Program-made: the position numbers and the translations under genes | Shown: positions 12,277-47,619 of the stretch, one piece after another | Position numbering within the stretch: the stretch's first letter is position 1 | Layout: each line of letters starts with the position of its first letter | Source: a virus | Direction: 5' to 3' (one strand) | Length of the DNA stretch: 64,000 bases | Virus record (IMG/VR): IMGVR_UViG_3300048837_000614 | Span: 1-64,000 of that record | Notes under the pieces: model-generated | Databases searched by the model: none | Told to the model about the DNA's origin: nothing | Seen by the model: the letters and a program-made list of their open reading frames with translations, nothing else

Positions 12277-12324
12277 AAGTAGACATAAAAACATCTCATG
12301 TATCGCCATGAGAAAGGTGGAAAA

Positions 12325-20687: not shown

Positions 20688-20722
20688 TGATATAATCGAA
20701 GTATAAAAAGTAAACGAGGTAA
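20688..20722 (+). promoter_or_regulatory. Extended -10 promoter with conserved 24-nt leader
   Basis: TGATATAAT then AAGTATAAAAAGTAAACGAGGTAA, identical to 32742-32765. Confidence 0.7.
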
Positions 20723-28000: not shown

Positions 28001-28892
28001 ATTGACATTTATAAATGAAAGAATTCAATACTTTGGTATAAATGAAGAGGCTACAAGTTATGATGTTAATCTCAATGCGACCGATAACTATGTCAAATTA
28101 TACTATTCAACCAAGTTCGAAGATTTAAAACAGTATACGCTTATATTAACTTATGATATATTAAACAATCGTTGGTATGAAGAAGATACAATGAGTTTCG
28201 GAAGACCTCACCAAATCTATTTATTAGACTCAACAACGAAATATGAAATGTTGACTGAAATGAATAATCAACTATTCATAACATATCAAACAGATAAGTA
28301 TAAAATGTTTATGATGGATAAGTATAGCCAAAGCTATTATGATAAAAACTTCTTTGGTGATTACCCAATAGAGTACTTCATAGATTCTGGTTATCTAAAA
28401 CTCAACGAGCATTTAAAAAAGAGATTTAAAACCCTTCAGATCAATATGAAGAATATTGATTCTAAGGAAATTTTATTTAGTTATAACTTCACAATAGATG
28501 ATAAACAGTTTGAAAATAACTTTGAACCATTCTATACAACGAATGAATCAGATGTTATCGTAGAAGTTAATAAGTTAAAAGAAATAGAGTTAGATCTGAA
28601 CAGAAGATTATCTACAGAGAAGAGCAAAAAAATGCTAGAAGAATTAAAGGATAGACTCTATTTTATGAAAGATATCGAAAGCAGTTATAAAAAAGATTTG
28701 ATTTCAGACATAGGAACTTTAGAAAATTTCTTCTTGGATTTCTCAAATCTTCAAACAGGTGATATAATTACAGTAAAGCAACATCTGCTTGGTGTTGGTA
28801 GATTACCTAGAGTGAGAATGAACTTTAGTTCAAAAAACAAGTTTTACATTTTATCGTTCGGGATAATATATTCTGAACACGGAGGAAAATAA
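25011..28892 (+). CDS. Tail nozzle/stabilisation-like protein with inserted thermonuclease (SNase) domain
   Basis: F.KGV...DP + R.PF start, beta-propeller-like YQDRILTYG..TVSMSE..PYYF, IDSGYL..HLKKRFKTLQI end; SNase motifs at ~25365-25680. Confidence 0.7.
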   Translation: MPNKMITGYKEKQIYRNERFTKGVVSTNDPLFEGSFRRLINFKVSNQNASIENREPFLSVPLFDLSNREIKLSKDAFVFALNSDTEHAFILDLYQEKITVDKYDAHFLEKDINDSNDFFVIDGDTIEVKGQRYRLAFVDAPETDDYSFEANDSNFDNLGQEAKSITNQFLQDPFSIVQFDFQSEKIDKFGRKLVFIIKKLDEQEYKILNLELLKDGYAHFYNFHNYDKVSVNLYVPEKVTIEETEINLFNETRVAYILGQDKSYSCFGTKYTETVAEILVNAENSYFTKAKVYKIKKDTDLKEIQLEEIVDEKKVFHKHLIKRVIKEFEISEIEVKKDLEIFNDESLKYSMITRDFSIINGKYRNQHLNMYIQIHNQFGTEIYRGLLELSYTPGVIEDNIEEGFDFITYKRPEAHVEIQDVVNTKPNILDDRSIIPMTYKGVKANVKGYSNPSVNTVLLNVNLNRNLERPNMVSDEVVTKYFRTDRPIFEDIERYNLTPFFKAPNIRSEKNKYMYRWDFVNLKEVDFGNEDEIKNFKPFFRSAWTELVDYPNETNNISKKPERMKRIATTLKNIKTADEFYMIESLATKRTITADDSEGFNIDELNDNLTAPKTLKEIQALFNNFLEEHTLSELKTELTRMHYIVDIEVETLVTIGDYHFKIVKVKNKTKLKEAIESNEKEDGFSFEEDYGKEAKALNYSERQLIFTSEENKNKKIAFLFSGISVIYENGTNPKKVVHYADETRGIVFDLTEDRSSVIPYNLNMGILKNMNVPGLDFDDFFKNGIQATFYLMTYKDEESLTEEDVFYDNVAYKKSSATYFFRKGNIFKYGKEDFVDDRLDRESFMIRYGKYVAAYQDRILTYGNPMYKNTVSMSEEGAPYYFSLYNTFEFDHEVVHVQSFKTIMLVFTINDVWVIYPWEDKNIETGIVTISYRIKKILYNISTEVKNKVTIKNITRYITLLSNNVLYLIKPSTYIGDDTEFYLNILSQNIDSIVRDPLTFINERIQYFGINEEATSYDVNLNATDNYVKLYYSTKFEDLKQYTLILTYDILNNRWYEEDTMSFGRPHQIYLLDSTTKYEMLTEMNNQLFITYQTDKYKMFMMDKYSQSYYDKNFFGDYPIEYFIDSGYLKLNEHLKKRFKTLQINMKNIDSKEILFSYNFTIDDKQFENNFEPFYTTNESDVIVEVNKLKEIELDLNRRLSTEKSKKMLEELKDRLYFMKDIESSYKKDLISDIGTLENFFLDFSNLQTGDIITVKQHLLGVGRLPRVRMNFSSKNKFYILSFGIIYSEHGGK

Positions 28893-31753: not shown

Positions 31754-32695
31754 ATGCCATGGATTAAAAAAGGAACCAAGATGGAATATTATGACGAATC
31801 TGGAAACCTAATCAAAAGTTATGATACAAATCTAGCAAACGGTTGGGACGCTGGTGATATAGGCATGGATCATCCTCTTAACGATGGGTATAAGACAAAT
31901 AACTTTTTTATAAGAGGTCAAGTAAAGCATGTCGAATCTGCCATTCAATACTTTTTAGAAAATCAAAAAATGCCATCAGCTTCAGACATAGGAGTCGGCG
32001 GTGGTAAACCTTATGACAACGTTATGGAAGACGTTAGAAAATGGTTATCCAGAAACGGAATCGATGAAGTAAAGTATTCAAAAGATGCAAATCAGTTTAT
32101 CTATTCGGATCAAGGCGGAGAAAAAAATCCGGATGCACCTAAAGTAGCACCTGTAGTAAATACTGAAGCAAGTACTTTGAATCCTTACACGGCTTATCTC
32201 GAAGAACAAAGATCTAAACAAGAAAACGCTGAACTCGGTTTATTAAACGAAACAACAAAAGCAAATATTCAAAACGCTGAAATTTCTACACAGCAAGGAA
32301 TGATTCAACAAGCACAATTAAAAGATCAACTTGTTGAACAAATTAGAAGTGATAGACTTTCTAAAATGCGTGCAGGTTTAACACCTATGCAAATCGCTCA
32401 AGAAGATCTTCAGTTCATGGTAGGAAACATGCAAGGCAATAATCAAAATATGCAGATGATGAATCAACAAAGGTTAGCAGCACAACAACAAAAAGCAATT
32501 AACCCATATCAAGCTTATGTAAATGCAAATGCAGCGATAACAGGTGGACAAGGTTATGTTAATGCGGCGAGTGGTTTTGCAGCAACTGATGCAGGAGATT
32601 TATATCAACAAGCATTAAGAATTGCACAAAGCAAAGGAAGAACGGCACCAAGTAATGATGACTTCTTCATGGCCCAAGGACAAAAACAAGGATAA
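31754..32695 (+). CDS. Putative internal virion/ejection protein
   Basis: Gln/Asn/Ala-rich helical C-half; located before the giant internal protein. Confidence 0.55.
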   Translation: MPWIKKGTKMEYYDESGNLIKSYDTNLANGWDAGDIGMDHPLNDGYKTNNFFIRGQVKHVESAIQYFLENQKMPSASDIGVGGGKPYDNVMEDVRKWLSRNGIDEVKYSKDANQFIYSDQGGEKNPDAPKVAPVVNTEASTLNPYTAYLEEQRSKQENAELGLLNETTKANIQNAEISTQQGMIQQAQLKDQLVEQIRSDRLSKMRAGLTPMQIAQEDLQFMVGNMQGNNQNMQMMNQQRLAAQQQKAINPYQAYVNANAAITGGQGYVNAASGFAATDAGDLYQQALRIAQSKGRTAPSNDDFFMAQGQKQG

Positions 32696-32702
32696 TAAAA
32701 TT

Positions 32703-32729
32703 AAGGTGGATATAATTCCATCTTTTTTT
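32703..32729 (+). terminator. Intrinsic terminator
   Basis: AAGGTGGA-TATAAT-TCCATCTT plus T-run. Confidence 0.75.
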
Positions 32730-32730: not shown

Positions 32731-32765
32731 TGCTATAATGAAAGTATAAAAAGTAAACGAGGTAA
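32731..32765 (+). promoter_or_regulatory. Extended -10 promoter with conserved 24-nt leader
   Basis: TGCTATAAT then AAGTATAAAAAGTAAACGAGGTAA. Confidence 0.7.
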
Positions 32766-32769: not shown

Positions 32770-35700
32770 ATGGCAGTCGCAAGAGTTGATAATCCCTGGG
32801 TAAGAAATTTAACATTAGCACCTTCAAGAGTCTATGCTACGTCTCCTTATAGACCCTATGCGGGTGTTTTCAATAATAGAGTAAACGTATCTACAGAACA
32901 ATACCAAGATAATTTTATTAGAGCTCTAAGTCCATTTAGTATCAATGATAAAAATGTAATCAATGCTATTCGCAAAGAATACAATATCGTTGATAATGGA
33001 AATTATAGAATGTCATCTAATGTAGGTTTCGGAGTTGGTGCTGTTGCCGGTGTTGTTGCATCTGGTGTTTTATATGGAAGTACAATAACGACATTAGCGA
33101 ATGCAGCCATTTATGGTGGTATGTTATCCTTTAACCCTGTAGGTTGGACTGCTGCTGCAGTTGGTACTGTTTTAGCTGTAGCAGGAACAATTATGACCTC
33201 TGCCGAATTAGGTAGGGCTATAGGTGCTTCTGTAGGCTCTAGAGAAGGTTCTATCGCTATGAGTAGATATCTTGCTAACCTTGGAAACTCAATGGTTAAG
33301 AGACCTACATCAACGGTTTTAACAGTAGCAACTATATTCGCAACTAATTGGGCTTTAAATAAAACTCCACTTAAATCTCCTATCGTAAGACAAGGTATAA
33401 CAATGACTGCAATGAGAGTTGTAAGACCTATCGCTGACAAATTAGACGATAGTCTTTTTGGTGAACTGAGTGAAGTAGATCAAATGTCTTACACTGATTT
33501 ACTTTCATTGCAAGGAGATTTGGCTGATAACTTCTCTGGTACTTCTTTAGTTAAGGGTGCTTTGGCTGGTGTATCTGGAGATGAAGGAAAGACAAAAGAA
33601 CTTATTGCAAAAATGTACGGTAGACACGAAGAAGGTTTTGATCCACTCGACTTCATGGATGTTCGTGAAGCTTGGGGGATTGACATAGGAACATTTGGAA
33701 ATGGTGTTATCGACATCCTTGGTGAAATAGTTTTTGATACGGATAATTCATTAAACACAATTAAAAATAAAACAACTACTACAATCTCAACATCGATTAA
33801 AAATCAAGTAGTAAAGAAAATCCTCTCTAATGAGAACGGAGATTTATTTAAGAGATACTTTGAAAAAGTAGAAACTAAAAATCCGGACGGAACTATTAAG
33901 ACAGAAATCAAAGCTAAGGATACTTTTAAAAATGAATTTCAAAATAAGATTATCCAAAGAGTAGTTGAAAAATATTTAGACGATTACAAAGACCCTTCTA
34001 CAGCTAAAACAGCCGAAGAAAGAAATGCAATTTTCAAAGAGAACAACGAGAAGTTGGACCACCACATTGGTGATCTTTATATCTATCTCTATAGAAAAGG
34101 TTTAGCTAACATCAAAGAAGACTCTTTAAAGATAGTTGAAGCACAAAAGATTATCGGTGAAATCAAAAAAGAAATTCAAGAAGGGCTTGAGGCTCATTCT
34201 GGTTACATGGAAAAGAATGTAAGCAATAAAACGAAATACGCTAAAGCTGTTAAGACAATGATAGAGTCACAAAAAGAAGCCACTAAAATTGTCAATCAAA
34301 ACTTTAAAAACAATGTCTATAACTTTGATAAAGCAATGCTTAAAGAGTTTCAAATACACAAAGCAGATTTCGATCATAACTATATTACAGGATTGTTAAA
34401 ATTACATCCTGCATTTTATCTTTACTCTGAAGCAAATAATAAAAACATGAGAGTCTTAGGTTATTTCACGAGACCTTTTCAGTCTGCAATTGCAAGTAAA
34501 CCAGGAAGAAAAGTAATTCAAAATGTTTTAAATAAGATTCAAAGAAAGTATGATCCTTACAAGAAGATAACCAAGGTTGATGAAATTATGCAATATGATA
34601 ATCCTATAACCAAGGAACAACAAAAAGAAGCATTAGAAAAGCTTAAACAATTTGATGATGTCTTGAAGGCTCAACTCAATAAATTTGAAGAAGAAAAAAT
34701 GAGACAAACACTCGGACAAGCTGAGATAGATAAACTCCTAAAAGAGTTAAATGACATCGAGGAATTTTTCGCAACTAATAAATTAACTGATGCTGAAAAA
34801 ATTAAGTACGAGAAATTTGAAGCACGTCAAAAGGAACTAACTAAGAAATATGCTGAAGCTAAAGCAGAAGCAATTAAGAAGATGGAAGTAGAAGATAAAA
34901 AGGCTTACGCACGTTATAAGAAATCTTTAAAGACAATCAACGATAGATACAAACAACTTATAGCTAATGCAGAACTTGTAGATAAATACATGGAAATGAC
35001 TAAGTTTGAATATGTCAACAAAGGCGTTAGACAAAAAATGGAAGTCAATAAAGACACCGAACAAGAGGTTTTAGACATTATTAAAGAATTAGAAGCGAAA
35101 AAAGATTTATCCGGTGATGAAAGAATCACTTTAGAAAACGCTAAGTTCGCATACTTCTTATATATGAAGGAAGATTTATTCAAAAAAGGGTATCAAGAAA
35201 TAACTTCAAATTATAATAAAGTAATTAAGTTTATTCAAAACTTCGAAACGTGGTTTACAGAAAACGCCTTTAAGCTGGAATCTTTAGTATTAAATACTAC
35301 GATATTCTCTGAAGTAAAACAACTTCAAAAAGAGATAAGAGATATAGATGCTAAACCATCTAAAACTCAAGATGAACTTGTTTTAGCAGAAAAAGAGAGA
35401 ATTAAATCGAGATACGAAGGTTTGATTAAGACTGTATATGCCAACCTGGAGAATGCGGAAGTATTCGACAAGAAAACAAGAGATGAAATCATCAAAGCTT
35501 TAGAAGGGGATGAGATGATTGAACTTCCTATTTTCTACGCAACAAATTTCTTTTCTGGAATCAAATTATTCGAACAAGACAAATCTTTCTTCTTAAATAA
35601 CAGAGCCCTATTCGATGAATTTAATAAAAGAATTTTAGAAGATGAAACTCAAGATCTATTAGATAGACTTAAGGATTCTATCATTAGAAAATCAAAAACA

Positions 35701-38700
35701 AAGTTTGAGTTTAAACAGAAGACTGAGTTCATCAATAACAAAGAATTACTTATAAAGAAAATTCAAAAGATACTTTTAGATTTGAATACAAAAGAAGATC
35801 CAGATAATCCTGGTTCAAAATTGTTGTCTGATGAAAATTATGAACTACTAAAACAAAACATCGAAGGCGTTGCAACAAGTTTAATCAATACAAATAGATC
35901 GATGCAAGTAGACCCTACAACATTAAGAAAAAATAACATGTACTCTAAGCGTTTTTCTGAACTATCACAGAATGATATCTTAGACTACGCTTTTAGACTT
36001 GCCACAAAGAACAATGAATTCTTAGGTACTGAATCAAAAATGATTGATAACGTTTTAAAAAACTTAGACCATTCAATCAAACAACTTCTACAAGTCGTTA
36101 AAGAAAGTAACAATGGAAAACTTAACTTCTTAGAAGGTTTTATTAACGAAAGCATTAGACGTCAAATGTATAAAATAAACAGTTCTAAAATCATCAATGC
36201 GATTAGTGCGAAGTATCTGCGTGTAGGACAATCGAAGAATTACTTTTTAAACCCAGAAGTTGAAGGTAAAAAGATTAAGGCTCTTAGTGAAAAAGCTCTT
36301 AAGAAAATTTCAAACAAGAAATATAAGTTTGAAACAACTGATAAAGATGTTATTAAACAAGGTATTGCTGCAGAGTTCTTAGAATCATTTAAAGGTACAC
36401 CTATGTATGACTTACTAATCAAGATGGGATTCGAAAAAATAATCAATGATAATGTTTCAGTAATAGATAAGGAAGAGGTTAAACCTAAAAAAGTAAAAAA
36501 GAGAGGTAAATCTCAGGAAGAGAAAGACTTCGAAGAACGTGGATTAACTTACACAAGATTAGTTGATGGAATCGTTAAAGATATCGAAATTAAAACAGGT
36601 AAAGTTTTAGATAACGAAGCAAGAAAGAAAATCTCACAAGCAGTTGCAAAAGCTATTAACGATCAAATAGGCTTAGTCAAGTCTGAATATGAAATCAAGA
36701 GAATGGAAAGTGCAGGATCTAAAAAAGTTTTCGATGATGTCTTCATGAATAAACTTGCTGAATCATTCTTCGGTAAATTAGTTGACGTTGAAAACTTAAG
36801 TTCAATCTTAAGAGGGAATAAAAGTTTACCTAAAACTAAAATAGATATGACTAAACCTGATCCAGAATCTGGAGTAAAAGGAAACCCATATCGTAATGCG
36901 ATTATCAACTTCATGTTAAATAATGAACCTACAGTTGAAAACATAATGAAGTTAAAATTACAACCATTCGGAACTTACTTGAACTTCGATGGTAAGGCTG
37001 TTTCTTTAGAGTCCATTGTTCAAATAGGCGAAGAAAATTTAGTTGGTGCATGGGCTGAAAAATATCGTTCTGACTTTAGTGAAAAAAATGAATATGGAGA
37101 ACCTATAAACGATCCTTTAGTTTTTGAATTCTTTAGAGGAATTGACGTAACTAAAGAAAGCAATGAAGGGTATGAGAGACATGTAGATGCTTCCTTTAAT
37201 TTACCTAATTCGCTTAGAAATAAAAAAGGTCTTCAAAATCTAAAGGACGAAGATTTCGTAGAAGTCAAAGATGATTTTGAAAGTGATGGAACAATAGCAA
37301 ATGATTTTATTAGAGTTTTCAAAGAAAGCGACTACGGACACAACTTCAAAAAAATAGCAATTCATAAAGGACAATTTGTATTTGATGATGTCATTAGAGG
37401 CAAAACAGTCACAAACGATATCATAGTTATTAGAATCACGACTACGGGAAATAAGAGTTATGACTTCTATGTCCCTAGAGAAATAATTAAAACTTATGGC
37501 GATCAAAAGATAGCGACATATAAAGTAAACAATAATGAATACATGAGAGTCATGATTGAAGGAGAAGATGAAAAATCTCTCGCTTATTTAGACAACATTA
37601 GTAAAGCTATTGAAAAAGACTTTATCAATCGCAAAATGATTAGTGATGAATTCAAGCAAAAGTTTGAACCGTTCTCAGTCCAAAAAGAAATCTTTAGATT
37701 ATTTTCTAAACAAAGAAATATAGGCGATACTCATGAACTCATCACAGACTTTGTCTATTTAGATCCTGATAAAACTGATTACGAAAAATTAGTTTACTCA
37801 CTTATGAGAAGACTTGACGAAGGTAAGAGAAAGAACTTAACTAAAAATAAAGCCTTTAGAGATGATTATAAAAAGAATGGTTATTATTTTGACTATACAC
37901 AAAGTGATCCTAAAGTAGTTGTTAAGGGAATCAAATTAAATAGTGGTGAATTTCAGTCTATAACAAGAATTTTTTCTCCGCTTGGTATCTTTACAGGTCG
38001 TGCCGAAAGAAGTGCTTTAGCGGCCAACGCAAGACGTAATGCGATTGAATTAGATACAAACGAACTACCTTTCTTATCATCATTGTTTATTCAACAGAAT
38101 CCTGAACTTTCCCAATTTGAAAAAGGTGGTTTTAATGCACGTGTATATTTAAAGGACACTTACTTAGATAACGGAAGTTCAACACATAATGAAACAGTGA
38201 TTATGAGAGAAGGTTTCGCAAGACAAAAATTTATTAAGAATGGTGTTCCAATGGATCTTTCCAATGGTATGAAAATCATAGATAGATACTCATCTAAACA
38301 TGGCGTGAGAATAGTTTCAGAAGATGAATGGAAAGAGATGTTCAAAGGTGATGATAAAGCTTTAAACTCAGATGTTATCATGTCGAAGAGAACGGTTAGA
38401 AAGAGAACGCTTTGGAATGTTGAAGCTGAACTTGCTATGAATGGTTTGGATGGAACAAGAAAATATATTGATAGCGAAATGAAAGGCAAGACAGATGAAG
38501 AAAAATTAGAATATCTTAAATCGGAGACAAAAGATGGAAATCTTGAAGGCGATCACGGATATCTTTATATGTTTCTAACTGATGATTTAAGCGATAACAA
38601 TGGAAGAGGTTATAAAGTTGCTGGAGATAACGACTCAAGCAATGGTGCAAAAATATCCATTGAAGAATGGCAAATGTTTAGTGCGTTAAGAGAAATCACT

Positions 38701-41700
38701 TACGCTGAAAATGGAAGTAGACAACCTATAGATCCTAATGGGGAATTATTCGACTTCTTATGGAAAAGAACTAAAACTCCTGAATCGGAATTAAGAGAAT
38801 CTATCTATGGAAATGTAAATGCAACCACAGGTAAGCAAGGGAAGTTTAGAAAAGAAATCATCGAAAGAAGAATGCCTAACTCTGCATACGCTAAAGCAAT
38901 ATCAAATACAAAATTAGCTAAGAATGAAATAGGAATACCAAGAGCGATGGCTGAGTCCATGGGTATTATCGTTAAAATCGAAGATGGATCTTATAGCAAT
39001 ACAACATCAAGTTCACAATATGTTTTATTACATCGTTCTCCAACACAAGGTAGAAGAAGTTTTGTTTATGCCAAAGTTAAAATCCTAGACGATGTTAAAG
39101 GAATGGTAAACAAAGCGATAGAAGTTAATCCTGCGTTTGAAGAAGCATTAAACCTTGACTTTGACGGTGATGGTGTTTCTATTTTCTCGTTGAAAGATGC
39201 GACTCCTGACATTTTAAAAATTGCTGAAACTGCATTTAGCCATAGTTATAAAGAAAAAACAAACTACAGCGATTACACTTTAAGAAATGAATATGGTATT
39301 AAACACAAAGATGTTGATATGAAAACTGAAAAAGATTTTGATATTAATAGAGATAAAAAAGATATATTAAACGAGGAAGCAAAACCAAAAGGTTATAAAC
39401 CCTCATTTGTTTCTGAAGATCAATGGGATAATGTTATGTTAAACCAAAAGACTTTAAAAGATTATTCTGGGTTATTTAAAAACATATTTGATGCCGATTA
39501 CCAGGACTATATTTCTAGTAAAGAAAATATGGATTGGTTTAATAAAACATTCAAAACTGAAGACATATCAAACGTTAAATTTGAATCGTTTTATGCACTT
39601 ACAACACTAGCATATGACTTTTATTCGCAAAAGACATTTGACTTCTCTAAGCATAGTAGACCAGGTGAAAAAGAATCTTTCGATGCAATTTATTCTATTA
39701 TCAAGAAAAAAGGTGGAGAAACTTTTGAGAATCACATTAGAAAATTAGTTAAAGTTCTTATGTTTGATATAACAAATACCCAAAAGAAGAATAGTAAAAT
39801 AGAGTTAATCAACAAGAGAAAAGATATTTCTGATTCAGAAAAAAGCAGACTATCTGATATAGAAGTTCAAAAATATCTTTACAAATTACGAGAATTCTTA
39901 AAAGAGGTAAGTAGAGAAGAACAAAGATTAGGTAAGACTAAACCCGAGATAATTAAAGAAGCTGAAACTAAAGAAATTGAAGGCGAAAAAGTTAAACCTG
40001 AAGAAGAACTACCAAAACAATTTGAAGAAGCTGACAACCAATTACTTAGAGATATCAATAAGATTTTAAAAGATAATGGTTTAGAAGAAACTACTATGGA
40101 CCAATTGGGTGCATTTAAGTCTGATAAGTTACTTTCGATTACAGGTGCATTCGATCAAAACGAAATCAAACATTTTAATCTCAATGATTGGAACTTAGAC
40201 CTTAAAGGTGTAAATCAAGTCTTTAGTTTTATGCTGAAGATGAATCAAGATATCGCCAAAGCAGCAAAAAGAAAGATGAAAACTAATGATAAAGTTTTAG
40301 AACCATTCCACAAAGCGTTTACAACTTATATAAGACAAGTGATACAGTCTTTTTATCAAGATCCTGATGTACTTAAAAACTTGTATCTTATTAAGATTGT
40401 AGAAATAAATGGGGAAGAAGTCCCTGAAAAGATAAGTTTCTTAGAATTGATTAATGTTTTTGGTTTGAAACCAGACGGAAAGTCCAAGAGAAGTATAGCC
40501 ACATTTAAAAACATAAACCCTGCAATCACTAAAATGGATAGCATAGGTGTTAATAAAGATGTATTAAGACTAGATGATAAGCGTCTAAGAAGTTTTTATA
40601 TAAGCAATGAGTCTGCATTCGAATCACCTAAATTAAATCGTTTAACGAATGAATTATTTACGAAGGTTCATAACAACATTAGAAAGACATTAAACAATAT
40701 GGGTTTAGGTGGAACACCTGTATTCAGCCCACTATTACACAACAAGTTGTTATTTAAACAAAATGTTTTTGACTCAATGTATCAAGCTCTTATGAGCAAC
40801 GAAGAAGATAAATCTATACTCGTGGATATCTTAAGAGATATGGGCGATGAAGATTCTATCAATGAATTAAAAGAAATCTTCAAACCATTCTTCATGTTTC
40901 AAACTGTTGCCCAATTCTTATCGGGTGATAAGAGAACAAACTTCATTAAATACCTATATCAAGTTGAGGGTATTTTTGACGACACGATAAAGACGGTTAT
41001 TCCAGAAAAGAAAACAGGTGCACTTGTTAAGAACTTAATCCGTTGGAACTTGATGAAAACAGGTGAACCCTACGAAGATTTTGGAAACGAGATTAAAGTT
41101 CTACTTAATACGAATGATGATAAGGTTGTAGATGAAATCGTTGAGATCTATTATCAAATGAGAAATGGTTTATTGGATAAAGATACATATGGTTCAATGA
41201 GTCAATTCGATAAAATGGATAGAGAGTTTAAATTAGATTTATTAGTCAAGATACACGAAATTAAGAACGGTAAGTTCGTAGAAAAGTTCGGAAGTAAGTA
41301 TGGAATCACTCAAGAAGATTTGAGAGAGAAAACTGAAAACTTCGAAATAGATGATAAGGTCATGGCTAAGTTCTTTAGAATTTATGACTATGCTTTTGAC
41401 ACAATTGAAGGAACTTTCGATATTAAGAATAGACAAAGAATCACAAGTGCTTTAGAAAAAGAAAAGATTAACTTTGGTTTAGTAAGTAATGTGATTAAAA
41501 ATGCTAACTATGAGTTATCAAAACTTGTGGCAAACACAATTACCATTCAAAACTCCAAAGGCGAAGCTGAAGATGTTAATCCATATCCATTTAGAAGTTT
41601 ATTACACCCAAATAACATCGAAGAAAATTCCATAATACTTATGAATGCGAACAAGAATAAGATGGCTAAAAACCTTACTGAACGTTTCTACAGATTAGTT

Positions 41701-44700
41701 ATGAAAGCTTTCAACAAAGAGGGTGCCGATAGTGAAATGACTAAGGAGATCCAAAAGATAAGTAATGATTTGAAAGCCGGTAATGACATCATGTCCTTAT
41801 ATTTATTTGAGGGTAAAGATATTGGAAGTTTTATCAAATTACTCAATGATTTAATTAACAATCAACAAACATTTACGATTCCATTGACGGATAGAATATT
41901 CAAATATTTCTTACACTTCAATGAAATGTCTAAAGTTATGGGTTTCGACAAGAAGATAATGCCTGGTACTATTGACGCTTACTACAGAGATATTAAAGGA
42001 TCAAACGTTGTAGATAGCGAAGGCAATATTAAAATGAATAATATTTACCGTATCATGTTCTTCGATTACGTTTACGGAGAGGGTATGCAAATCAATGCAA
42101 GAAATAACACTCCTGAGTTCCAGGAAGCATTTAACAATTTAGTTTCTTACTTTGATAAGAACCCTAACATGAATACATTTGGTTTACATCCACACGCATT
42201 TGTTGAAACATTCTTTGGTAAGATGTTATTTGAACAAAGAGTTGAAAGCGAAAAGCACACCATTAAAGAAGATCCAAAACCTATCCAAGAAAAACTCATA
42301 GAGTATTACAAGGATAGAATTAAAGAACTTGAAGTGCTTTCCAAAAATAGAGATTCAACAAGCAACGAATATCTTAAAGCAATGGAAGAAGCAACAGAAA
42401 AAGGCGAAACTTTAGATTTAAGTCAAATTACGATTGATCCTGTTAAGCAACAAGAAATATTAGACGCCTACAAAAAATATTTATCTGTAGAACTTCTTGA
42501 AGAAAAGATTGTAGATGATAAAGTTTCTAACGTATTCGATACATTTGAGTGGTCGAAGTACATAGGTCAAGAAGGTGTTGAGTTTAATACCAAAAACCTA
42601 TTTAACATTTATGCTCAACTTATTGGTAAAAAAGAATTTCCACAAGAAGAAATCGTCAAGCTAACTGAAGAGTTATCTCAAGAGATTATTAGAGATAATA
42701 CAAACGCTAATTTCAAGTTTAAAGGTAATAAGAAGATACATACAGCGTTGATAGATGCACAACTTAACTTAAAAGTAATGGATCTTATCGTTAGAGAGTT
42801 CGAAAAGAACGAAGGTAGATATAAAGACTACCAAGAGTTAAAAACTCTTATAAACGATTTTAAAGACCCAAGCAAGAAGAAGAACTTTGCTATCATAGAT
42901 AGTGAAAACTTAGTTTCTGGAAATGACTACAACCGTATTTATGAAATCTCATACATAACGTTTGATGATAATGGTAAGCCTTTATATCATCAACATTATT
43001 TGAAGTATGACATTGATAAAAGAACTGAAAATTGGTTGAAGAAGATGGGTTATAGCGATAAAGAAATTCAAATTATCAAAGACAACATGAAGAATATCGC
43101 TGATCCAGATTACAACAAAAAGATTTATGAACAAGTTTTTGCTGATTTAAAAGGTAAAAACCTTATTGGACAAAGTGTCAAATCACAAGGCGACACTCCG
43201 GGTGATATCGGTAAATTGAATTACGAATATCAACAAATTCTTAAGAATGATGTTCGTAAAACGATTAAGAAACATAATGAAAAAGAACAAGAGTTCTTAG
43301 ATAACATTAAAGAATCAAGCATGAAAGACTTGATGAAGAATGTAGATAGCACTGAACTTAATTCAACAGCTCAAGCTGATATGATGATGAAAGTTTTAAT
43401 TGACATCGTTAAAGAAGATTTGAACGAAAAGATTTTACCTCAAGGCGTTGAAAAAATTGACAACGAACAATTTAATACACACATATCAAAGACTTCAGAA
43501 TTAATGAGAGTGTTTATTGAAGAAAACAATCAAGACATTCTTAAACTTCGTATGGAAGAAATCTTAGAGATCGATGAAATGCCTAAAGAAGTATTTGATG
43601 CAATCTTAAAGAAATTCGAAGATAAATTCAACGAATTAAAAGGTGAAAACAATGATGGCGTACTTGTGATGAAGTGGCCTAGAATTGTTAAAACTGAAGA
43701 TGGTGTAAGAGTAGAGTTTTTAGAAGTTGATGAAAAAGAAATCGTTGGCAAAAATGAAGAGTTCTTAGTTAAGAAAGTAAGATTCGACTCTGACGATGTT
43801 CGTGCAAATTACTTATTTAGAAGTCGTGCCTTTTATGAAATCATCAAAGAAGTCAAGGACATGATTATCATTCGTGGTATACCACATGAACATTTAGGTA
43901 AGACAGTTCAAAGAACAATTACCTTAAATCAATACGAAATGCTTAATCGCAAAATCGTAAGATTACAAGGCAAGCTTGATGATAAAAATCTAAAAGTTAA
44001 AAAGCATTTAGATGATGCAACAAAGTTTATGATGGAAGGTAACGAAGTCGAATACCTTGTATCCATGAATAAAGCAATAAAAGAATATGAAAAAACAAAT
44101 TCTAAGATGGATGCTTTTACAGATATCGATTTAGAAACCGACTCAAACAAGGTCGATTTATTCTTGAAAGAACAAGTCGAAAAGAATACAGGCCAAATGG
44201 CTAACATTCCAATGTGGAGAGTTGAACAACACTTCGCAGATATGATTTCTAAATTCTATAAAGATACTTTGGCATCGAAAAGAACGATTGAAGAAAAAGA
44301 ACAAGATTATAAGTACATCGCTAAAATCGAAGATATTATTACAGCTTTAGAGTATGAAGATATGAACACTTTAGATTTCAAGCGATTTGCTGACATCGTA
44401 GGTTTAAATGAGTATGGCGATTTCGGTAGAGAAATACATACACAACTTATGGAAACTTACGAAGATTACAAGAAAAACGGTATACCATTCTTCTATGCAG
44501 GAAGTGACAAACCTTATTCAACACTTGAATATAAAGAAGATGGCGAAAACCTATTTAAAAAAATGGCTTTCTATGCAATACTCAATCCACGTAGTGATGA
44601 TAAAAAAACTTTAGGAAGTTTCTTGAAGATGATTATCTCTGAAGAAGGCGTTAGAGAATACAAACGCTATGACATCGATGAAACAAAGCAAACCGAAATA

Positions 44701-47619
44701 GATAAAGTAAAATCTAAGTTAGTCAACAAAAAACAAGAAGATGCAAGAAACAAAGAAGCTTTCGCAGACGCTAGAATTGAAGTTAAAAACATGATACTCA
44801 AAGAGGATTGGGCTGGTTTAGAAGCATACTTAAAAGACAAACCTGGTGAGAAGTTTAATATTGAAGAATTCAAACAAAGATTTTATGAAGAGTTCAACAA
44901 AACTAAAACTAAAGGTATTGCCAAATACAAAATGGAATGGCGTATGGAAGGACAAACTCCTACACCGTTTGAGAAGTTTATTGAAAGCGTTCCTTACATT
45001 GAACAACCTGGTGTTCGTGGTGAGTTCTTAAGAACAGTTATTTCTAATTTTGAAAAAGAGATTAGTGGAATCACTTATATTAAGAGTCACTATACAACGT
45101 TAGATCCAACGATGAGAGTTGATAAACCTGTAACATACAAGTATTACAACGACCATTTAGAAGATTACAATGGTAAATGGGTACCAAGTGATTACCGTAG
45201 GGATCATCCACAAAATCAAACGATTAGAAAGAGTTATGATTACTTAAGAGCAAACGTTGATAAGACAAGAGATTTGTCACAGTATCAAGCTGGGTTTGAA
45301 GGAATGATTGCACCTTTTAGAAAAGGAAATAGTTATGACTATGAAAAACTATACTACGAATTAACTGAAGGTTATTTATCAAAGATTTACAAATTAACAA
45401 TTATTACTGATATTTCCAAAGGTTCTACAGGTATGGGTAAACTGACCGAAGAACAAGAGATTGAAGCTTCTACAGAACGTAGAAACAAAGCGTTCCAAAA
45501 AGGTTTACAAAAGAAGATTGATAAACTTGAAAATAAGATTATCGAACTTCAAAAGTTAAACACTCCTGAAGCAAATCAACAGATTTCACAAATTAGATTA
45601 CAAATCGATGATACCAAAAAAGTAGTATATCAAAAGAACAAGTATTACGACGAAGCCGAAATATCTAAATTGAGAAGAAGTGAGCCGATTTGGAAATCAG
45701 ATCAAGAAGTATTTGGAAGTTCAATCATAAGAACTACAGACAAAAAAGGTAATGTAGTTGAAGAGAATATGTTAGATTGGATGGACAGTATTAAAGACAC
45801 AGCACACCCAACCTTAAAGGTAATAGCTTTAGATGGCAACAAAGAAAATGCCATCAAACAACTCAAAGAGTTAGTTAAGATGAATAGAGAAAAAGGTTTA
45901 CACCTTGGTTTCACATTACTTCATGACATCTTAAAGACTGATGAAATGAGTTATTCTGGTTATATGTTGCCTAAACCTGTTGCTATGCTGCAGTCAAGTA
46001 TTATTAAGTTTCAAAAGTTCATGATGTTAATGAACAATGGATTCATGGTTAGAAATATCTATGATGGTATGCTAAGAAATCATCAACTGATTTTAGGTAG
46101 TGATGATATCGTGAGTGAAAACTTTAGATTTGCTAAAGAGGCAGTTAGAAGTTGGAACTTGATTTTCCAATACAAAGCATACGCTAAAGCCCATGGTTTC
46201 CAAGTGAGAGAACTTAAACACTTCTTCGAAAGCGTTAAAGACTTTGAAAGTGGTCCATATGCGTTGCATGATTTACAAAAAGTTAGCACAGACTTTCAAG
46301 CGATGCTAACATTACAAATAGATTCTCTTAAGAATTATTTGGGAAACATCATCAAAGATGAAAACCAAACAGCAACAAGACGTGCTAGTGACAACTTCAC
46401 AGACCTATCAAGAATCATGAGAAGATTACAAGCAATCGTAGATACACTAAAAAATAACCCGGCAACAAAGTCACCAGAATATATTAAAGAGTTTAAATTG
46501 CAACTGAAAGATTTCTTTGAAGTCTATCAACAGGCTGGTTTCTTTAAGCAAGTTATTATGAATGCTAATGATAAGAGAATCAAATTAGATTTTAGTAATA
46601 ATTCAGAAGATAACATCAAAAAAACTAAAGATAATCTTAACATGGTTAGACTTATCAATGAAATCGAAAAGTCTGGTATCATTTCGGATCAATACGAAAT
46701 TACAGGTAAACAAGATGTTAAAGATATCTATAGAAACATCGATAAGATGTTAGATGATGAATTGATGAATGTCGGTTTAAACGATAGAATCGATAAGATT
46801 ATGTCGCATCACCCTATCGCTATTGCAACAAACTATGTTGAACAGCATCAACGTGTCCATGGTGTCCTACTCGATATGTTCGTCAATGGTAAAACTAAAG
46901 ATAGAGCCTTGGCTGAATCTTTAGGTAGATTCTTCAACTACGGTATGAAGGGTGCTTATGAAAAATCAGCAAGTGTTTACTTCCCGTTCATGAGCTTTGC
47001 CATTAGAAACTTAGATTACTATTTGGACCTTATGGGCGACCAAAAGTATATGAGATTTATGACAAACGTAGCACAAGGTATGAATACCTGGTATGATGAT
47101 GAAGATGAAGAAAACTTTAGATTTAGTCGTTCATTTAATGACTTTACTGAAAACCAAGGCTGGATACCTTTAGGTAAGAATTATGGAATTAAAATGGGCA
47201 ACGCCATGTTTGATGCCATGAGTTTGGTTGAGGATCCATTTCAAAGTGGATACCAAAAATTAAATCCTGTTTTACAACAGGCTAATAATCTTACCAAGGG
47301 TGAAGATTTTAATCCGAAAGCATTAGCTTCCGTTACACAATATAGCCGTATGGCTAGTGCGATAGGAACAATCGCTAAAGGACAAGGCATGAATATGCCA
47401 CAGGATTTACCTGATTTAGTTCCATCTCTATTTTATAAACGTAGTGAATACACTCCGTATAAGTATAGAAGATATTCTACTGACTATAGAAATATTTATA
47501 GAAATCTATTCTTTAGTGATGGAAGTCGTAGAGTCCCAAGTAAGAATCCGTTTACTACAGCTAAGAATATTCGTTATGAAGCCTATGTTCGTGCAAGATT
47601 AAATGCGAATATAAAATAG
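32770..47619 (+). CDS. Giant 4949-aa internal virion protein containing a fused beta/beta' (two-barrel) DNA-dependent RNA polymerase; candidate virion RNAP
   Basis: Collinear RNAP motifs: RSALAANARRNA(~38008), NETVIMRE(~38188), GMKIIDRYSSKHGV(38266), DVIMS, GYLYM(38557), GAKISIEEW(38644), GKQGKFR..RMPNS..IGIP(38830), LHRSPT(39028), NPAFEEALNLDFDGDG (NLDFDGD at 39151-39171). N-terminal Gly/Ala-rich hydrophobic helices; C-terminal FFNY..YE..YFPFMSF..RN motif. Confidence 0.88.
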   Translation: MAVARVDNPWVRNLTLAPSRVYATSPYRPYAGVFNNRVNVSTEQYQDNFIRALSPFSINDKNVINAIRKEYNIVDNGNYRMSSNVGFGVGAVAGVVASGVLYGSTITTLANAAIYGGMLSFNPVGWTAAAVGTVLAVAGTIMTSAELGRAIGASVGSREGSIAMSRYLANLGNSMVKRPTSTVLTVATIFATNWALNKTPLKSPIVRQGITMTAMRVVRPIADKLDDSLFGELSEVDQMSYTDLLSLQGDLADNFSGTSLVKGALAGVSGDEGKTKELIAKMYGRHEEGFDPLDFMDVREAWGIDIGTFGNGVIDILGEIVFDTDNSLNTIKNKTTTTISTSIKNQVVKKILSNENGDLFKRYFEKVETKNPDGTIKTEIKAKDTFKNEFQNKIIQRVVEKYLDDYKDPSTAKTAEERNAIFKENNEKLDHHIGDLYIYLYRKGLANIKEDSLKIVEAQKIIGEIKKEIQEGLEAHSGYMEKNVSNKTKYAKAVKTMIESQKEATKIVNQNFKNNVYNFDKAMLKEFQIHKADFDHNYITGLLKLHPAFYLYSEANNKNMRVLGYFTRPFQSAIASKPGRKVIQNVLNKIQRKYDPYKKITKVDEIMQYDNPITKEQQKEALEKLKQFDDVLKAQLNKFEEEKMRQTLGQAEIDKLLKELNDIEEFFATNKLTDAEKIKYEKFEARQKELTKKYAEAKAEAIKKMEVEDKKAYARYKKSLKTINDRYKQLIANAELVDKYMEMTKFEYVNKGVRQKMEVNKDTEQEVLDIIKELEAKKDLSGDERITLENAKFAYFLYMKEDLFKKGYQEITSNYNKVIKFIQNFETWFTENAFKLESLVLNTTIFSEVKQLQKEIRDIDAKPSKTQDELVLAEKERIKSRYEGLIKTVYANLENAEVFDKKTRDEIIKALEGDEMIELPIFYATNFFSGIKLFEQDKSFFLNNRALFDEFNKRILEDETQDLLDRLKDSIIRKSKTKFEFKQKTEFINNKELLIKKIQKILLDLNTKEDPDNPGSKLLSDENYELLKQNIEGVATSLINTNRSMQVDPTTLRKNNMYSKRFSELSQNDILDYAFRLATKNNEFLGTESKMIDNVLKNLDHSIKQLLQVVKESNNGKLNFLEGFINESIRRQMYKINSSKIINAISAKYLRVGQSKNYFLNPEVEGKKIKALSEKALKKISNKKYKFETTDKDVIKQGIAAEFLESFKGTPMYDLLIKMGFEKIINDNVSVIDKEEVKPKKVKKRGKSQEEKDFEERGLTYTRLVDGIVKDIEIKTGKVLDNEARKKISQAVAKAINDQIGLVKSEYEIKRMESAGSKKVFDDVFMNKLAESFFGKLVDVENLSSILRGNKSLPKTKIDMTKPDPESGVKGNPYRNAIINFMLNNEPTVENIMKLKLQPFGTYLNFDGKAVSLESIVQIGEENLVGAWAEKYRSDFSEKNEYGEPINDPLVFEFFRGIDVTKESNEGYERHVDASFNLPNSLRNKKGLQNLKDEDFVEVKDDFESDGTIANDFIRVFKESDYGHNFKKIAIHKGQFVFDDVIRGKTVTNDIIVIRITTTGNKSYDFYVPREIIKTYGDQKIATYKVNNNEYMRVMIEGEDEKSLAYLDNISKAIEKDFINRKMISDEFKQKFEPFSVQKEIFRLFSKQRNIGDTHELITDFVYLDPDKTDYEKLVYSLMRRLDEGKRKNLTKNKAFRDDYKKNGYYFDYTQSDPKVVVKGIKLNSGEFQSITRIFSPLGIFTGRAERSALAANARRNAIELDTNELPFLSSLFIQQNPELSQFEKGGFNARVYLKDTYLDNGSSTHNETVIMREGFARQKFIKNGVPMDLSNGMKIIDRYSSKHGVRIVSEDEWKEMFKGDDKALNSDVIMSKRTVRKRTLWNVEAELAMNGLDGTRKYIDSEMKGKTDEEKLEYLKSETKDGNLEGDHGYLYMFLTDDLSDNNGRGYKVAGDNDSSNGAKISIEEWQMFSALREITYAENGSRQPIDPNGELFDFLWKRTKTPESELRESIYGNVNATTGKQGKFRKEIIERRMPNSAYAKAISNTKLAKNEIGIPRAMAESMGIIVKIEDGSYSNTTSSSQYVLLHRSPTQGRRSFVYAKVKILDDVKGMVNKAIEVNPAFEEALNLDFDGDGVSIFSLKDATPDILKIAETAFSHSYKEKTNYSDYTLRNEYGIKHKDVDMKTEKDFDINRDKKDILNEEAKPKGYKPSFVSEDQWDNVMLNQKTLKDYSGLFKNIFDADYQDYISSKENMDWFNKTFKTEDISNVKFESFYALTTLAYDFYSQKTFDFSKHSRPGEKESFDAIYSIIKKKGGETFENHIRKLVKVLMFDITNTQKKNSKIELINKRKDISDSEKSRLSDIEVQKYLYKLREFLKEVSREEQRLGKTKPEIIKEAETKEIEGEKVKPEEELPKQFEEADNQLLRDINKILKDNGLEETTMDQLGAFKSDKLLSITGAFDQNEIKHFNLNDWNLDLKGVNQVFSFMLKMNQDIAKAAKRKMKTNDKVLEPFHKAFTTYIRQVIQSFYQDPDVLKNLYLIKIVEINGEEVPEKISFLELINVFGLKPDGKSKRSIATFKNINPAITKMDSIGVNKDVLRLDDKRLRSFYISNESAFESPKLNRLTNELFTKVHNNIRKTLNNMGLGGTPVFSPLLHNKLLFKQNVFDSMYQALMSNEEDKSILVDILRDMGDEDSINELKEIFKPFFMFQTVAQFLSGDKRTNFIKYLYQVEGIFDDTIKTVIPEKKTGALVKNLIRWNLMKTGEPYEDFGNEIKVLLNTNDDKVVDEIVEIYYQMRNGLLDKDTYGSMSQFDKMDREFKLDLLVKIHEIKNGKFVEKFGSKYGITQEDLREKTENFEIDDKVMAKFFRIYDYAFDTIEGTFDIKNRQRITSALEKEKINFGLVSNVIKNANYELSKLVANTITIQNSKGEAEDVNPYPFRSLLHPNNIEENSIILMNANKNKMAKNLTERFYRLVMKAFNKEGADSEMTKEIQKISNDLKAGNDIMSLYLFEGKDIGSFIKLLNDLINNQQTFTIPLTDRIFKYFLHFNEMSKVMGFDKKIMPGTIDAYYRDIKGSNVVDSEGNIKMNNIYRIMFFDYVYGEGMQINARNNTPEFQEAFNNLVSYFDKNPNMNTFGLHPHAFVETFFGKMLFEQRVESEKHTIKEDPKPIQEKLIEYYKDRIKELEVLSKNRDSTSNEYLKAMEEATEKGETLDLSQITIDPVKQQEILDAYKKYLSVELLEEKIVDDKVSNVFDTFEWSKYIGQEGVEFNTKNLFNIYAQLIGKKEFPQEEIVKLTEELSQEIIRDNTNANFKFKGNKKIHTALIDAQLNLKVMDLIVREFEKNEGRYKDYQELKTLINDFKDPSKKKNFAIIDSENLVSGNDYNRIYEISYITFDDNGKPLYHQHYLKYDIDKRTENWLKKMGYSDKEIQIIKDNMKNIADPDYNKKIYEQVFADLKGKNLIGQSVKSQGDTPGDIGKLNYEYQQILKNDVRKTIKKHNEKEQEFLDNIKESSMKDLMKNVDSTELNSTAQADMMMKVLIDIVKEDLNEKILPQGVEKIDNEQFNTHISKTSELMRVFIEENNQDILKLRMEEILEIDEMPKEVFDAILKKFEDKFNELKGENNDGVLVMKWPRIVKTEDGVRVEFLEVDEKEIVGKNEEFLVKKVRFDSDDVRANYLFRSRAFYEIIKEVKDMIIIRGIPHEHLGKTVQRTITLNQYEMLNRKIVRLQGKLDDKNLKVKKHLDDATKFMMEGNEVEYLVSMNKAIKEYEKTNSKMDAFTDIDLETDSNKVDLFLKEQVEKNTGQMANIPMWRVEQHFADMISKFYKDTLASKRTIEEKEQDYKYIAKIEDIITALEYEDMNTLDFKRFADIVGLNEYGDFGREIHTQLMETYEDYKKNGIPFFYAGSDKPYSTLEYKEDGENLFKKMAFYAILNPRSDDKKTLGSFLKMIISEEGVREYKRYDIDETKQTEIDKVKSKLVNKKQEDARNKEAFADARIEVKNMILKEDWAGLEAYLKDKPGEKFNIEEFKQRFYEEFNKTKTKGIAKYKMEWRMEGQTPTPFEKFIESVPYIEQPGVRGEFLRTVISNFEKEISGITYIKSHYTTLDPTMRVDKPVTYKYYNDHLEDYNGKWVPSDYRRDHPQNQTIRKSYDYLRANVDKTRDLSQYQAGFEGMIAPFRKGNSYDYEKLYYELTEGYLSKIYKLTIITDISKGSTGMGKLTEEQEIEASTERRNKAFQKGLQKKIDKLENKIIELQKLNTPEANQQISQIRLQIDDTKKVVYQKNKYYDEAEISKLRRSEPIWKSDQEVFGSSIIRTTDKKGNVVEENMLDWMDSIKDTAHPTLKVIALDGNKENAIKQLKELVKMNREKGLHLGFTLLHDILKTDEMSYSGYMLPKPVAMLQSSIIKFQKFMMLMNNGFMVRNIYDGMLRNHQLILGSDDIVSENFRFAKEAVRSWNLIFQYKAYAKAHGFQVRELKHFFESVKDFESGPYALHDLQKVSTDFQAMLTLQIDSLKNYLGNIIKDENQTATRRASDNFTDLSRIMRRLQAIVDTLKNNPATKSPEYIKEFKLQLKDFFEVYQQAGFFKQVIMNANDKRIKLDFSNNSEDNIKKTKDNLNMVRLINEIEKSGIISDQYEITGKQDVKDIYRNIDKMLDDELMNVGLNDRIDKIMSHHPIAIATNYVEQHQRVHGVLLDMFVNGKTKDRALAESLGRFFNYGMKGAYEKSASVYFPFMSFAIRNLDYYLDLMGDQKYMRFMTNVAQGMNTWYDDEDEENFRFSRSFNDFTENQGWIPLGKNYGIKMGNAMFDAMSLVEDPFQSGYQKLNPVLQQANNLTKGEDFNPKALASVTQYSRMASAIGTIAKGQGMNMPQDLPDLVPSLFYKRSEYTPYKYRRYSTDYRNIYRNLFFSDGSRRVPSKNPFTTAKNIRYEAYVRARLNANIK

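Follow-up and report, generated by a model that had tools for sequence, protein, structure and literature searches.

RNA polymerases (RNAPs) that reach the host cell by injection are known from three phage groups, the N4-like, crAss-like and P23-45-like phages, and only the last two groups have enzymes of the two-barrel fold. Thermus phage P23-45 has been reported to encode a 5,002-amino-acid (aa) virion RNAP fused to the tape measure protein, gp96, alongside a non-virion RNAP, gp64; in the same report, gp96 is described as a flat, clamp-less enzyme with a shortened connector, features proposed to permit its passage through the tail channel (Chaban et al., 10.1101/2022.12.01.518664, PMC10770324). 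In the crAss-like Cellulophaga phage phi14:2, gp66 (PDB 6VR4) is reported to be packaged in the virion (Drobysheva et al., 10.1101/2020.03.07.982082), and the N-terminal, polymerase and C-terminal parts of N4 gp50 have been linked with injection, catalysis and encapsidation, respectively (Iyer et al. 2017, PMC5512222). Here, we analyzed a giant gene at positions 32770..47619 of a 64,000-nucleotide (nt) stretch of the viral record IMGVR_UViG_3300048837_000614, hereafter the window, whose positions 1-64,000 supply the window coordinates. The 4,949-aa product carries a beta-like followed by a beta'-like double-psi barrel in a single chain, an arrangement that an earlier reading of the DNA letters by themselves (the sequence-only reading) had proposed and that is supported by a Pfam RNA_pol_Rpb1_2 match, a structural model of the core, its fold matches and invariant catalytic residues. 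We consider it probable that this compact two-barrel RNAP belongs to a giant late protein that would be packed in the capsid of a short-tailed phage, be ejected, and transcribe the first genes. The polymerase module covers about aa 1735-2175, and the whole module perhaps extends over aa 1400-2400.

Two polymerase barrels within one giant chain

The giant gene, which lies on the plus strand like all of its features given below, is a single open frame from ATG to stop (the stop codon included in the coordinates); it is the longest frame in the window, no bigger frame competes with it, and its product contains no cysteine. The sequence-only reading had called the same 4,949-aa frame and had listed ten motifs in the order known from cellular RNAPs, including an intact NLDFDGD, and on all of these points our analysis agreed with it. 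The motifs were located, each once except GIP, which occurs three times, as RSALAANARRNA (aa 1747), ETVIMRE (1808), GMKIIDRYSSK (1833), GYLYM (1930) and GAKISIEEW (1959) in the first part, and as GKQGKFR (2021), RMPNS (2034), GIP (2055), HRSPT (2088) and NLDFDGD (2128-2134) in the second part. As the following comparisons show, their resemblance to cellular beta and beta' is above chance and reflects true homology.

The beta'-like catalytic double-psi barrel spans aa 2032-2166 (38863..39267) and contains the NLDFDGD metal-binding loop (39151..39171). Pfam RNA_pol_Rpb1_2 matched aa 2077-2139 slightly below its cut-off of 25.3 bits when the whole protein was searched (24.6 bits, E 3.4e-5) and above it when a 500-aa piece, aa 2001-2500, was used (30.1 bits, E 7e-7). 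All 40 matches of a phmmer search with aa 1700-2300 against PDB sequences (E ≤ 10) were RNAP largest subunits, with 8dkc_D as the best (E 5.8e-4); a five-sequence profile raised this match to E 1.6e-5, and the best 60 of its 109 matches were all beta', gamma or Rpb1. A profile of the whole protein gave beta'-type chains in 35 of 37 matches; a LOV2-DARPin fusion (E 0.037) and Rop (E 0.16) also appeared in this search, both at chance level. Furthermore, hhalign aligned the family profile to four other single-chain RNAP classes over the beta' barrel with probabilities of 98.1-98.6%.

Structural comparison pointed in the same direction. A first AlphaFold2 model (aa 1650-2350, five sequences) had a mean predicted local distance difference test (pLDDT) of 50 and served as a pointer only; it was replaced by a nine-sequence core model. 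The barrel of the first model was aligned by VIA-align to Pol I A190 (7ob9_A) with Z 12.9 and a root-mean-square deviation (rmsd) of 2.3 over 107 residues, the core model reaching Z 10.5, and likewise aligned to Pol II, archaeal A', AR9, Mycobacterium beta' and vaccinia chains. Among the matches listed by Foldseek against the PDB, 50 of 50 were beta'-type chains (E ~1e-7), and all named matches in a BFVD structure search were viral RNAP subunits.

The beta-like barrel, resembling that of the second-largest subunit, occupies aa 1735-1948 (37972..38613) and holds R1747, ETVIMRE, GMKIIDRYSSK and GYLYM. GMKIIDRYSSK (38266..38298) is the counterpart of the beta motif GDKxxxRHGNK, and the family members grade in this motif from GFKIINRHSGK to GMKIIDRYSSK. 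The core model, built with AlphaFold2 for aa 1735-2175 from nine family sequences (mean pLDDT 80.2; predicted template modelling score 0.77), was aligned with VIA-align against 48,161 PDB representatives. Model residues 1 to ~214-290 matched nine second-largest-subunit chains over 182-251 residues with Z 14.9-17.9: Pol I A135 (4c2m_B, Z 17.9, rmsd 3.1, 193 aligned), Xanthomonas beta (6j9e_C, Z 17.6), plastid beta (8qma_A, Z 17.2), Pol IV (7eu0_B, Z 17.1), phage AR9 (7s00_C, Z 16.7), PhiKZ (7ogp_C, Z 16.3), Pol III (5fj8_B, Z 16.3), vaccinia (6rfl_B, Z 15.4) and African swine fever virus (8q3b_B, Z 14.9). Unrelated barrel proteins scored far lower, at Z ~7-10. Across both barrels, the model matched QDE-1 (Z 12.7, 279 aligned, model residues 3-425) and P23-45 gp96 (Z 11.5, 206 aligned), and the other single-chain enzymes were P74 gp62 (Z 10.5), maize RDR2 (Z 10.0) and crAss phi14:2 gp66 (Z 6.6). 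Structure prediction thereby recovered both members of the double-psi barrel pair. Moreover, secondary hhalign alignments against the four RNAP classes paired the beta motifs with their canonical counterparts in the correct order (P 5e-4 to 9e-2): R-S-A-L-A..N-A with RA-MGaKNmKQA (P 5e-4), the GxK motif with GDKLMGRHGNKG (P 5e-3), and ETVIM, GMK, SKRTV, GYLYM and ISIEE jointly against the 1,050-aa class (P 0.09).

The two barrels are joined by a connector, aa 1949-2031 (38614..38862), which includes GAKISIEEW and GKQGKFR and has neither a clamp-sized insert nor a cysteine. In E. coli, the flap insert measures ~250 aa and the clamp insert ~330 aa. The secondary structure of the core model shows the connector as a helix-rich stretch of ~80 residues, and since the giant protein lacks cysteine, the zinc sites of the cellular clamp are impossible. 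The spacing from the beta motif to DxDGD was 274-311 aa in nine of nine family proteins versus 376-655 aa in other single-chain RNAPs (the 38 of 145 distant matches that have both motifs in one chain), and the ~440-aa core was the most compact among the nine family members and these 38 enzymes.

Beyond the catalytic barrel lies a conserved helical region, aa 2175-2360 (39292..39849), with an invariant Q2287-K-x-F-D-x-x-K-H2295 block. Conservation of the helical part covers aa 2226-2340, a stretch modelled with low confidence in the first model, and the region is a possible candidate for the equivalent of the bridge helix and trigger loop. A polymerase module that has decayed into a catalytically dead relic, retained as a structural part of a giant protein that is internal or ejected, would account for the loss of flap, clamp and zinc sites and for a region after the catalytic loop that matches no known bridge helix or trigger loop. 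The conservation argues the other way. R1747, K1835, R1839, K1843, G2021, K2022 and G2024 are invariant in nine of nine family proteins, as are R2089, P2091, G-R-R-S at 2094-2097, N2128, D2130, D2132, G2133 and D2134; the three aspartates with the preceding asparagine, the R-x-P and the three basic residues of the beta motif have thus all been kept at 28-78% overall identity, as expected of an active site that still works. Moreover, gp96, which is stripped down in a similar way, is reported to be active (Chaban et al.). We therefore regard a dead relic as very improbable.

A rare protein family, a paralogous polymerase and a shared late promoter

A word-indexed search retrieved four other giant proteins of 4,823-5,355 aa, which aligned with the query end to end and whose RNAP regions were 75, 51, 38 and 29% identical to it. 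An exhaustive profile search of 1.84 billion representatives yielded 159 matches at E ≤ 0.001, of which just five, P0003 and P0006-P0009 (3,570-5,291 aa), matched the full 700-position profile, together with a few short fragments; the remaining matches listed were confined to profile positions ~335-590, that is, to the beta' barrel. The giant-protein family is rare. Searching 50,697 phage records by tblastn with aa 1700-2300 gave one weak match, MT836236 (26.8% identity over 20% of the query, E 5e-5), a scan of viral contigs with the RNAP region gave six pattern matches and no confirmed one, and a PHROGs search of the giant protein returned no family. Searches of the literature found no description of the family, which may be among the 23 RNAP families that Chaban et al. 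aligned in their supplement. Measured as identity per 150-aa segment, conservation peaks at both ends of the protein (aa 1-450 and 4350-4949) and is solid across the RNAP region.

Contigs from four independent public metagenome runs, one from compost and three from wastewater in four studies, cover parts of the giant gene. One contig of 5,944 bases spans 34768-40697 at ~91% identity, and its sole indels are +1/-1 pairs a few bases apart, as expected of a frame under selection. One homologue of the giant protein, P0003, is filed under a metagenome-assembled genome (MAG) of Candidatus Moranbacteria (EOM19), and a homologue of the second RNAP described below, P0160, under a Spirochaetia MAG (EOM67). 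With their similar locus-tag prefixes, these are probably phage contigs mis-binned in one study, so that the names would be uninformative on the host.

The same genome encodes a second RNAP. A 1,146-aa protein, encoded outside the window on the minus strand at genome positions 77440-80880 as the second gene of a leftward block, has a DFDGD at residue 811 and gave no Pfam, PHROG or PDB-sequence match. As a single sequence, it aligned by hhalign to the RNAP profile of the giant family with 92.2% probability (E 5.7e-7, 367 columns) in one piece across both barrels; eight homologues, none of them annotated, were found in a collection of 5.8 billion proteins, and the resulting nine-sequence family profile raised the match to 96.2% (E 2.5e-9, 364 columns from the R motif to DFDGD). 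Because the matches of the 1,146-aa protein to other RNAP classes were much weaker, the two enzymes are, as judged from profile alignments, paralogues and each other's closest relatives. The same relationship is reported for gp96 and gp64 of P23-45 (Chaban et al., PMC10770324). A promoter scan upstream of the block of the paralogue gave nothing (7 found versus 5.7 expected).

Upstream of the giant gene, a terminator-like hairpin with an 8-pair stem followed by TTTTTTT (32703..32724) closes the preceding gene (31754-32695). It is followed by an extended -10-like element, TGCTATAAT (32731..32739), which by its consensus match is a putative part of the giant gene's own promoter, by a 17-bp box, AAGTATAAAAAGTAAAC (32742..32758), and by the Shine-Dalgarno sequence GAGG (32759..32762), 7 nt ahead of the ATG. 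In an alignment, the same extended -10 element, TGATATAAT, stands at an equal distance upstream of the gene for a 1,422-aa protein, which we call structural by position only, as it has no family match. An identical copy of the 17-bp box is found ahead of that gene (at 20729) as well, and over ~40 bases the promoter regions of the two genes (TGnTATAAT, 17-bp box, GAGG) are nearly identical. The box, AAGTA(T/A)AAAAAGTAAAC, has four copies in the window, at 11650-11666 and 12245-12261 on the minus strand and at 20699-20715 and 32742-32758 on the plus strand, versus 0.09 expected, and none of 100 shuffles reached four. Both plus-strand copies stand between the extended -10 and the ribosome-binding site of the two late genes. 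Given these nearly identical promoter regions, we place the giant gene in the same late regulon as the 1,422-aa gene.

Outside the core, the giant protein is largely helical and rich in lysine and glutamate. Its N-terminal conserved region, aa 1-450 (32770..34119), is ~54-78% identical to homologues P0002-P0004, and the language-model atlas offered nothing usable for it (top score 0.85). Within this region lie two hydrophobic segments, aa 83-107 (33016..33090), which is rich in Gly, Ala and Val and is a candidate membrane-inserting helix, and aa 123-147 (33136..33210). Hydrophobic stretches at ~aa 75-201 were present in all eight family proteins examined, with one segment in P0008 and two in the other seven, at ~aa 75-110 and 120-171; a single extra segment elsewhere occurred in just two of the eight. 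Cysteine is absent from the giant protein and occurs once in the 43,944 residues of nine family proteins. The other open reading frames (ORFs) of the genome have 125 cysteines in 21,047 residues (0.59%), which makes the probability of none in 4,949 residues 1.6e-13. Taken together, the cysteine avoidance and the N-terminal hydrophobic pair may mark a chain that exits the virion in unfolded form and encounters a membrane.

By analogy with N4 gp50, the C-terminal conserved region, aa 4350-4949 (45817..47616), may serve in encapsidation or in binding to the portal. Polyvalent phage proteins combine several known effector or LPD domains in a single late-gene product (Iyer et al. 2017). For the C-terminal 600 aa, the language-model atlas scored 0.96 to viral clusters, one of them with LPD38, at low recognition (1762); this lead was not borne out, as neither a Pfam match nor a stand-alone homologue was found. 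A genome search with PF18857 (LPD38) gave no match, the control for this model having matched in 0 of 14 genomes. Rpb1_2 alone was above cut-off when ten pieces of 500-600 aa were searched with Pfam, and an NB-ARC match below cut-off (E 0.0039, 16.9 bits) was treated as chance. The sequence-only reading had termed the protein a polyprotein, for which we found no ground: Pfam searches of the whole protein and of the pieces and a PDB profile search revealed no protease domain or sign of processing.

A giant protein that is never injected, but acts inside the cell as a late or replication-linked RNAP or primase fused to scaffolding regions, seems unlikely to us, by about the same measure as the tape measure protein considered below. 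Having its own promoter after a terminator-like hairpin, the gene need not have a structural role, and packaging is itself something that we infer; two-barrel enzymes, moreover, can be primases or use RNA templates, and QDE-1 and PolD are among the fold matches. However, an ordinary-sized paralogue is already there for intracellular transcription, and the giant gene shares its promoter class with the 1,422-aa gene, which precedes it in the block. Near-total cysteine avoidance across nine proteins and N-terminal hydrophobic segments are likewise hard to explain in the cytoplasm, and the three characterized giant RNAP fusions (N4 gp50, crAss gp66 and P23-45 gp96) are all virion proteins.

The virion block and the proposed fate of the giant protein

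The record is 85,919 bases long, and its end repeats its start: window positions 1055-4192 are 100% identical to genome positions 82782-85919 (3,138 bases), and positions 1-251 are 95.6% identical to 82526-82776 (251 bases). The genome is thus a complete circular or terminally redundant unit of ~82.5 kb, rather than 75% complete as the record itself estimates, and with the genome complete no tail module is missing. In the window-start copy, the large terminase gene is split by an 803-base insertion (252-1054) with an HNH endonuclease gene at 399-944 (phrog_59, E 9e-43), whereas the copy at the other end is intact and encodes 564 aa. The insertion appears to be a homing endonuclease or intron that is polymorphic in the population.

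The giant gene ends a plus-strand block that begins with the terminase and portal genes and includes the capsid gene; a strand switch follows it. Among cultured phages, relatives of terminase, portal and capsid, and of the small gene that follows the capsid gene, were found only in the Paenibacillus phages API480 and SV21 (23-30% identity); these were also the only two of the 50,697 phage records with a terminase match. API480 is described as a podovirus whose head measures 58 nm and whose tail measures 12 x 8 nm. Its genes follow the same order, the block ending in a 1,631-aa protein (gp16) for which the most peptides (71) were reported in mass spectrometry of unpurified phage particles (PMC6937236). 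The "N4-gp56-type capsid" of the sequence-only reading could not be confirmed; the cultured phages related in capsid, portal and terminase are the podophages API480 and SV21 only. Its host call stands in part: a Bacillota host is plausible through these Paenibacillus phages, and Mollicutes are not indicated, the frame being open under code 11.

Several features of the locus recall a tape measure protein with a fused RNAP of the P23-45 kind, which would reside in the tail tube of a very long non-contractile tail and not in the head. The size is near that of gp96 (4,949 versus 5,002 aa), the protein is mostly helical and lysine- and glutamate-rich outside the core, hydrophobic segments and a clamp-less polymerase are present, a paralogous non-virion RNAP accompanies it as in P23-45, and gp96 is among the fold matches (Z 11.5). 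Nevertheless, the polymerase here sits in the middle of the protein (aa 1735-2175 of 4,949) and not at the N-terminus. No tail-tube, chaperone, distal-tail, tail-tip or baseplate gene was detected among 20 ORFs of the block searched with PHROGs and nine ORFs of the window searched with Pfam; a strand switch follows the gene where baseplate genes would be expected, in a genome that is complete, and the cultured relatives of terminase, portal and capsid are podoviruses only, with the 12 x 8 nm tail. A tape measure role is accordingly an unlikely account of this protein.

The reading that we favor, a virion RNAP ejected from the capsid of a short-tailed phage, is suggested with respect to packaging and ejection by the gene position, the shared late promoter, the cysteine avoidance, the hydrophobic segments, the API480-like head module and analogy. 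Under this model, a few copies of the giant protein would be packed in the capsid of a phage with a probable Bacillota host. At the start of infection, the cysteine-free chain would thread its way out via the tail and insert into the cell membrane by its two N-terminal hydrophobic segments. The polymerase module would then transcribe the first genes of the entering DNA, including the gene for the 1,146-aa RNAP; this non-virion enzyme would take over and run the early and middle programme, and the late genes, including the giant gene, would be read from host-like extended -10 promoters.

A number of observations weigh against this model. For the polymerase itself, Pfam PF00562 (Rpb2_6) had no match in the genome, having matched in 14 of 14 control genomes, and for this reason the beta-like identification draws on one predicted nine-sequence model and weak collinear profile alignments. 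The region at aa 2140-2360, compared by hhalign with the paralogue family and four RNAP classes, gave no match (P 0.43-0.93). The sequence-only reading had left more than 4,000 aa unexplained, and indeed no fold could be assigned to ~4,300 aa, for which Pfam, PHROG and PDB-sequence searches gave no match. Regarding the virion, the tail genes have no detectable relatives, so that the short tail is deduced from the head module alone. The link to API480 gp16 is by position only, and the API480 particles were unpurified: BLASTP revealed no similarity between the giant protein and gp16 (best E 0.21), nor between the preceding 313-aa protein and API480 gp15. Finally, we infer that the enzyme is active, that the protein is packaged, ejected and inserted in the membrane, and that transcription proceeds in the order given.

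In a bolder form of the same model, the phage would be a short-tailed one that infects Gram-positive bacteria, and its ~570-kDa cysteine-free chain would by itself be a complete "transcribing ejectosome": an N-terminal hydrophobic hairpin would open the membrane while the polymerase pulls in and transcribes the DNA, switching on the paralogous RNAP. We hold this form to be possible but doubtful. Were it true, early infection would be independent of the host polymerase, the protein would be a third independently assembled giant virion RNAP (vRNAP) fusion, and its minimal core would allow study of how two barrels suffice for transcription.

Three further genes of the block encode proteins with recognizable domains. 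The gene at 4481-11602, which lies between those for portal and helicase, encodes a 2,373-aa protein that combines BspA-type leucine-rich repeats (E 1e-49) with a CotH kinase-like domain (E 2e-10) and a Listeria-Bacteroides repeat; it is likely a surface-binding or host-recognition protein. A 1,293-aa protein of the structural block (25011-28892) has an SNase domain at aa 133-225 (Pfam E 3.9e-6, 27.7 bits, cut-off 21) and also matches a PHROG endonuclease (E 9e-11). A DnaB-like replicative helicase (12298-13674, plus strand; phrog_19, E 2e-63) is encoded within the otherwise structural block, between the genes for the leucine-rich repeat protein and the capsid.

Comparison with known injected and two-barrel polymerases

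If packaged and ejected as proposed, the giant-protein family would add a fourth lineage of injected RNAPs, in phages whose cultured relatives are known only on Gram-positive Paenibacillus. It retains sequence-detectable kinship with cellular beta' and fits both barrels into ~440 residues, which recommends it to structural and evolutionary studies as a candidate for a minimal two-barrel enzyme, and it offers a test of the idea that clamp loss is an adaptation to tail passage. The pair of paralogous RNAPs repeats the P23-45 arrangement in an unrelated virion type and suggests that duplication into an injected and a stand-alone enzyme is a recurrent solution, and the near-absolute avoidance of cysteine may serve as a sequence signature for injected phage proteins.

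Relative to cellular beta and beta' and to the jumbo-phage enzymes of AR9 (7S00) and PhiKZ (7OGP), the giant protein shares the motif order and the Rpb1_2 match, and these enzymes provide the best fold matches for each half, with Z 16-18 for the beta-like half and 10-13 for the beta' half. It differs from them in having both barrels in one chain of ~440 aa, embedded in a 4,949-aa protein, with no flap, clamp, zinc sites or Rpb2_6 signal. The core is nonetheless nearer to this group than to the QDE-1/crAss group.

Single-chain RNAPs of this general type exist elsewhere, and YonO of SPbeta is a published single-chain beta-beta' RNAP. Uncharacterized classes of ~1,050, 1,100-1,200, 1,500-2,000 and 1,800-1,950 aa resemble the giant protein in carrying a GxKxxxRHGNK-type motif and then DFDGD in one chain. 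Their motif spacing is wider, as given above, none of them is part of a ~5,000-aa protein of such architecture, and the similarity in the beta half is marginal.

By position, the nearest counterpart is API480 gp16, which is likewise the last and largest gene of a terminase-portal-capsid block with homologous terminase, portal, capsid and gp9. It is about one-third the size, and the two proteins have no detectable sequence similarity.

The sequence-only reading had named the crAss-like and N4 systems as parallels; it missed the closest published analogue, P23-45. Like gp96, the giant protein is a ~5,000-aa protein of the virion module with a single-chain two-barrel RNAP, a short connector and no clamp, and like P23-45, the genome has a second, stand-alone paralogous two-barrel RNAP (hhalign 96.2% here). 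In contrast to gp96, the RNAP is in the middle of the protein instead of at the N-terminus, where two hydrophobic segments are found; gp96 gave no sequence match in the PDB searches, the core is closer to cellular second-largest subunits (Z 14.9-17.9) than to gp96 (Z 11.5), and the head module is podovirus-related, with no long-tail genes seen.

The giant protein resembles phi14:2 gp66 in its large size, in its DFDxD two-barrel RNAP and in being encoded among the virion genes of a podovirus-like phage. The fold match is weak (6vr4_B, Z 6.6, rmsd 5.3), gp66 is absent from the PDB sequence matches, and unlike the QDE-1-like crAss enzyme, the beta' barrel of the giant protein is detectable by the cellular Pfam model. 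Membership in the crAss-like vRNAPs was considered and rejected, as kinship with gp66 was not found and terminase, capsid and portal relate to API480 and SV21 only.

N4 gp50 (~3,500 aa) shares the three-part layout, with the polymerase in the middle of the protein between long flanks, in a giant protein of a podovirus that has further phage RNAPs. Unlike the giant protein, however, N4 has a T7-type single-subunit polymerase of unrelated fold. Membership in the N4-like vRNAPs, whose T7-like right-hand polymerase domain usually comes with a zincin peptidase domain, was likewise rejected, as Pfam and PDB searches of the giant protein found no T7-type polymerase, metallopeptidase or other N4-associated domain. 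In our reading, then, the giant protein works like P23-45 gp96 with gp64 and like the crAss and N4 vRNAPs, but belongs to none of those families.

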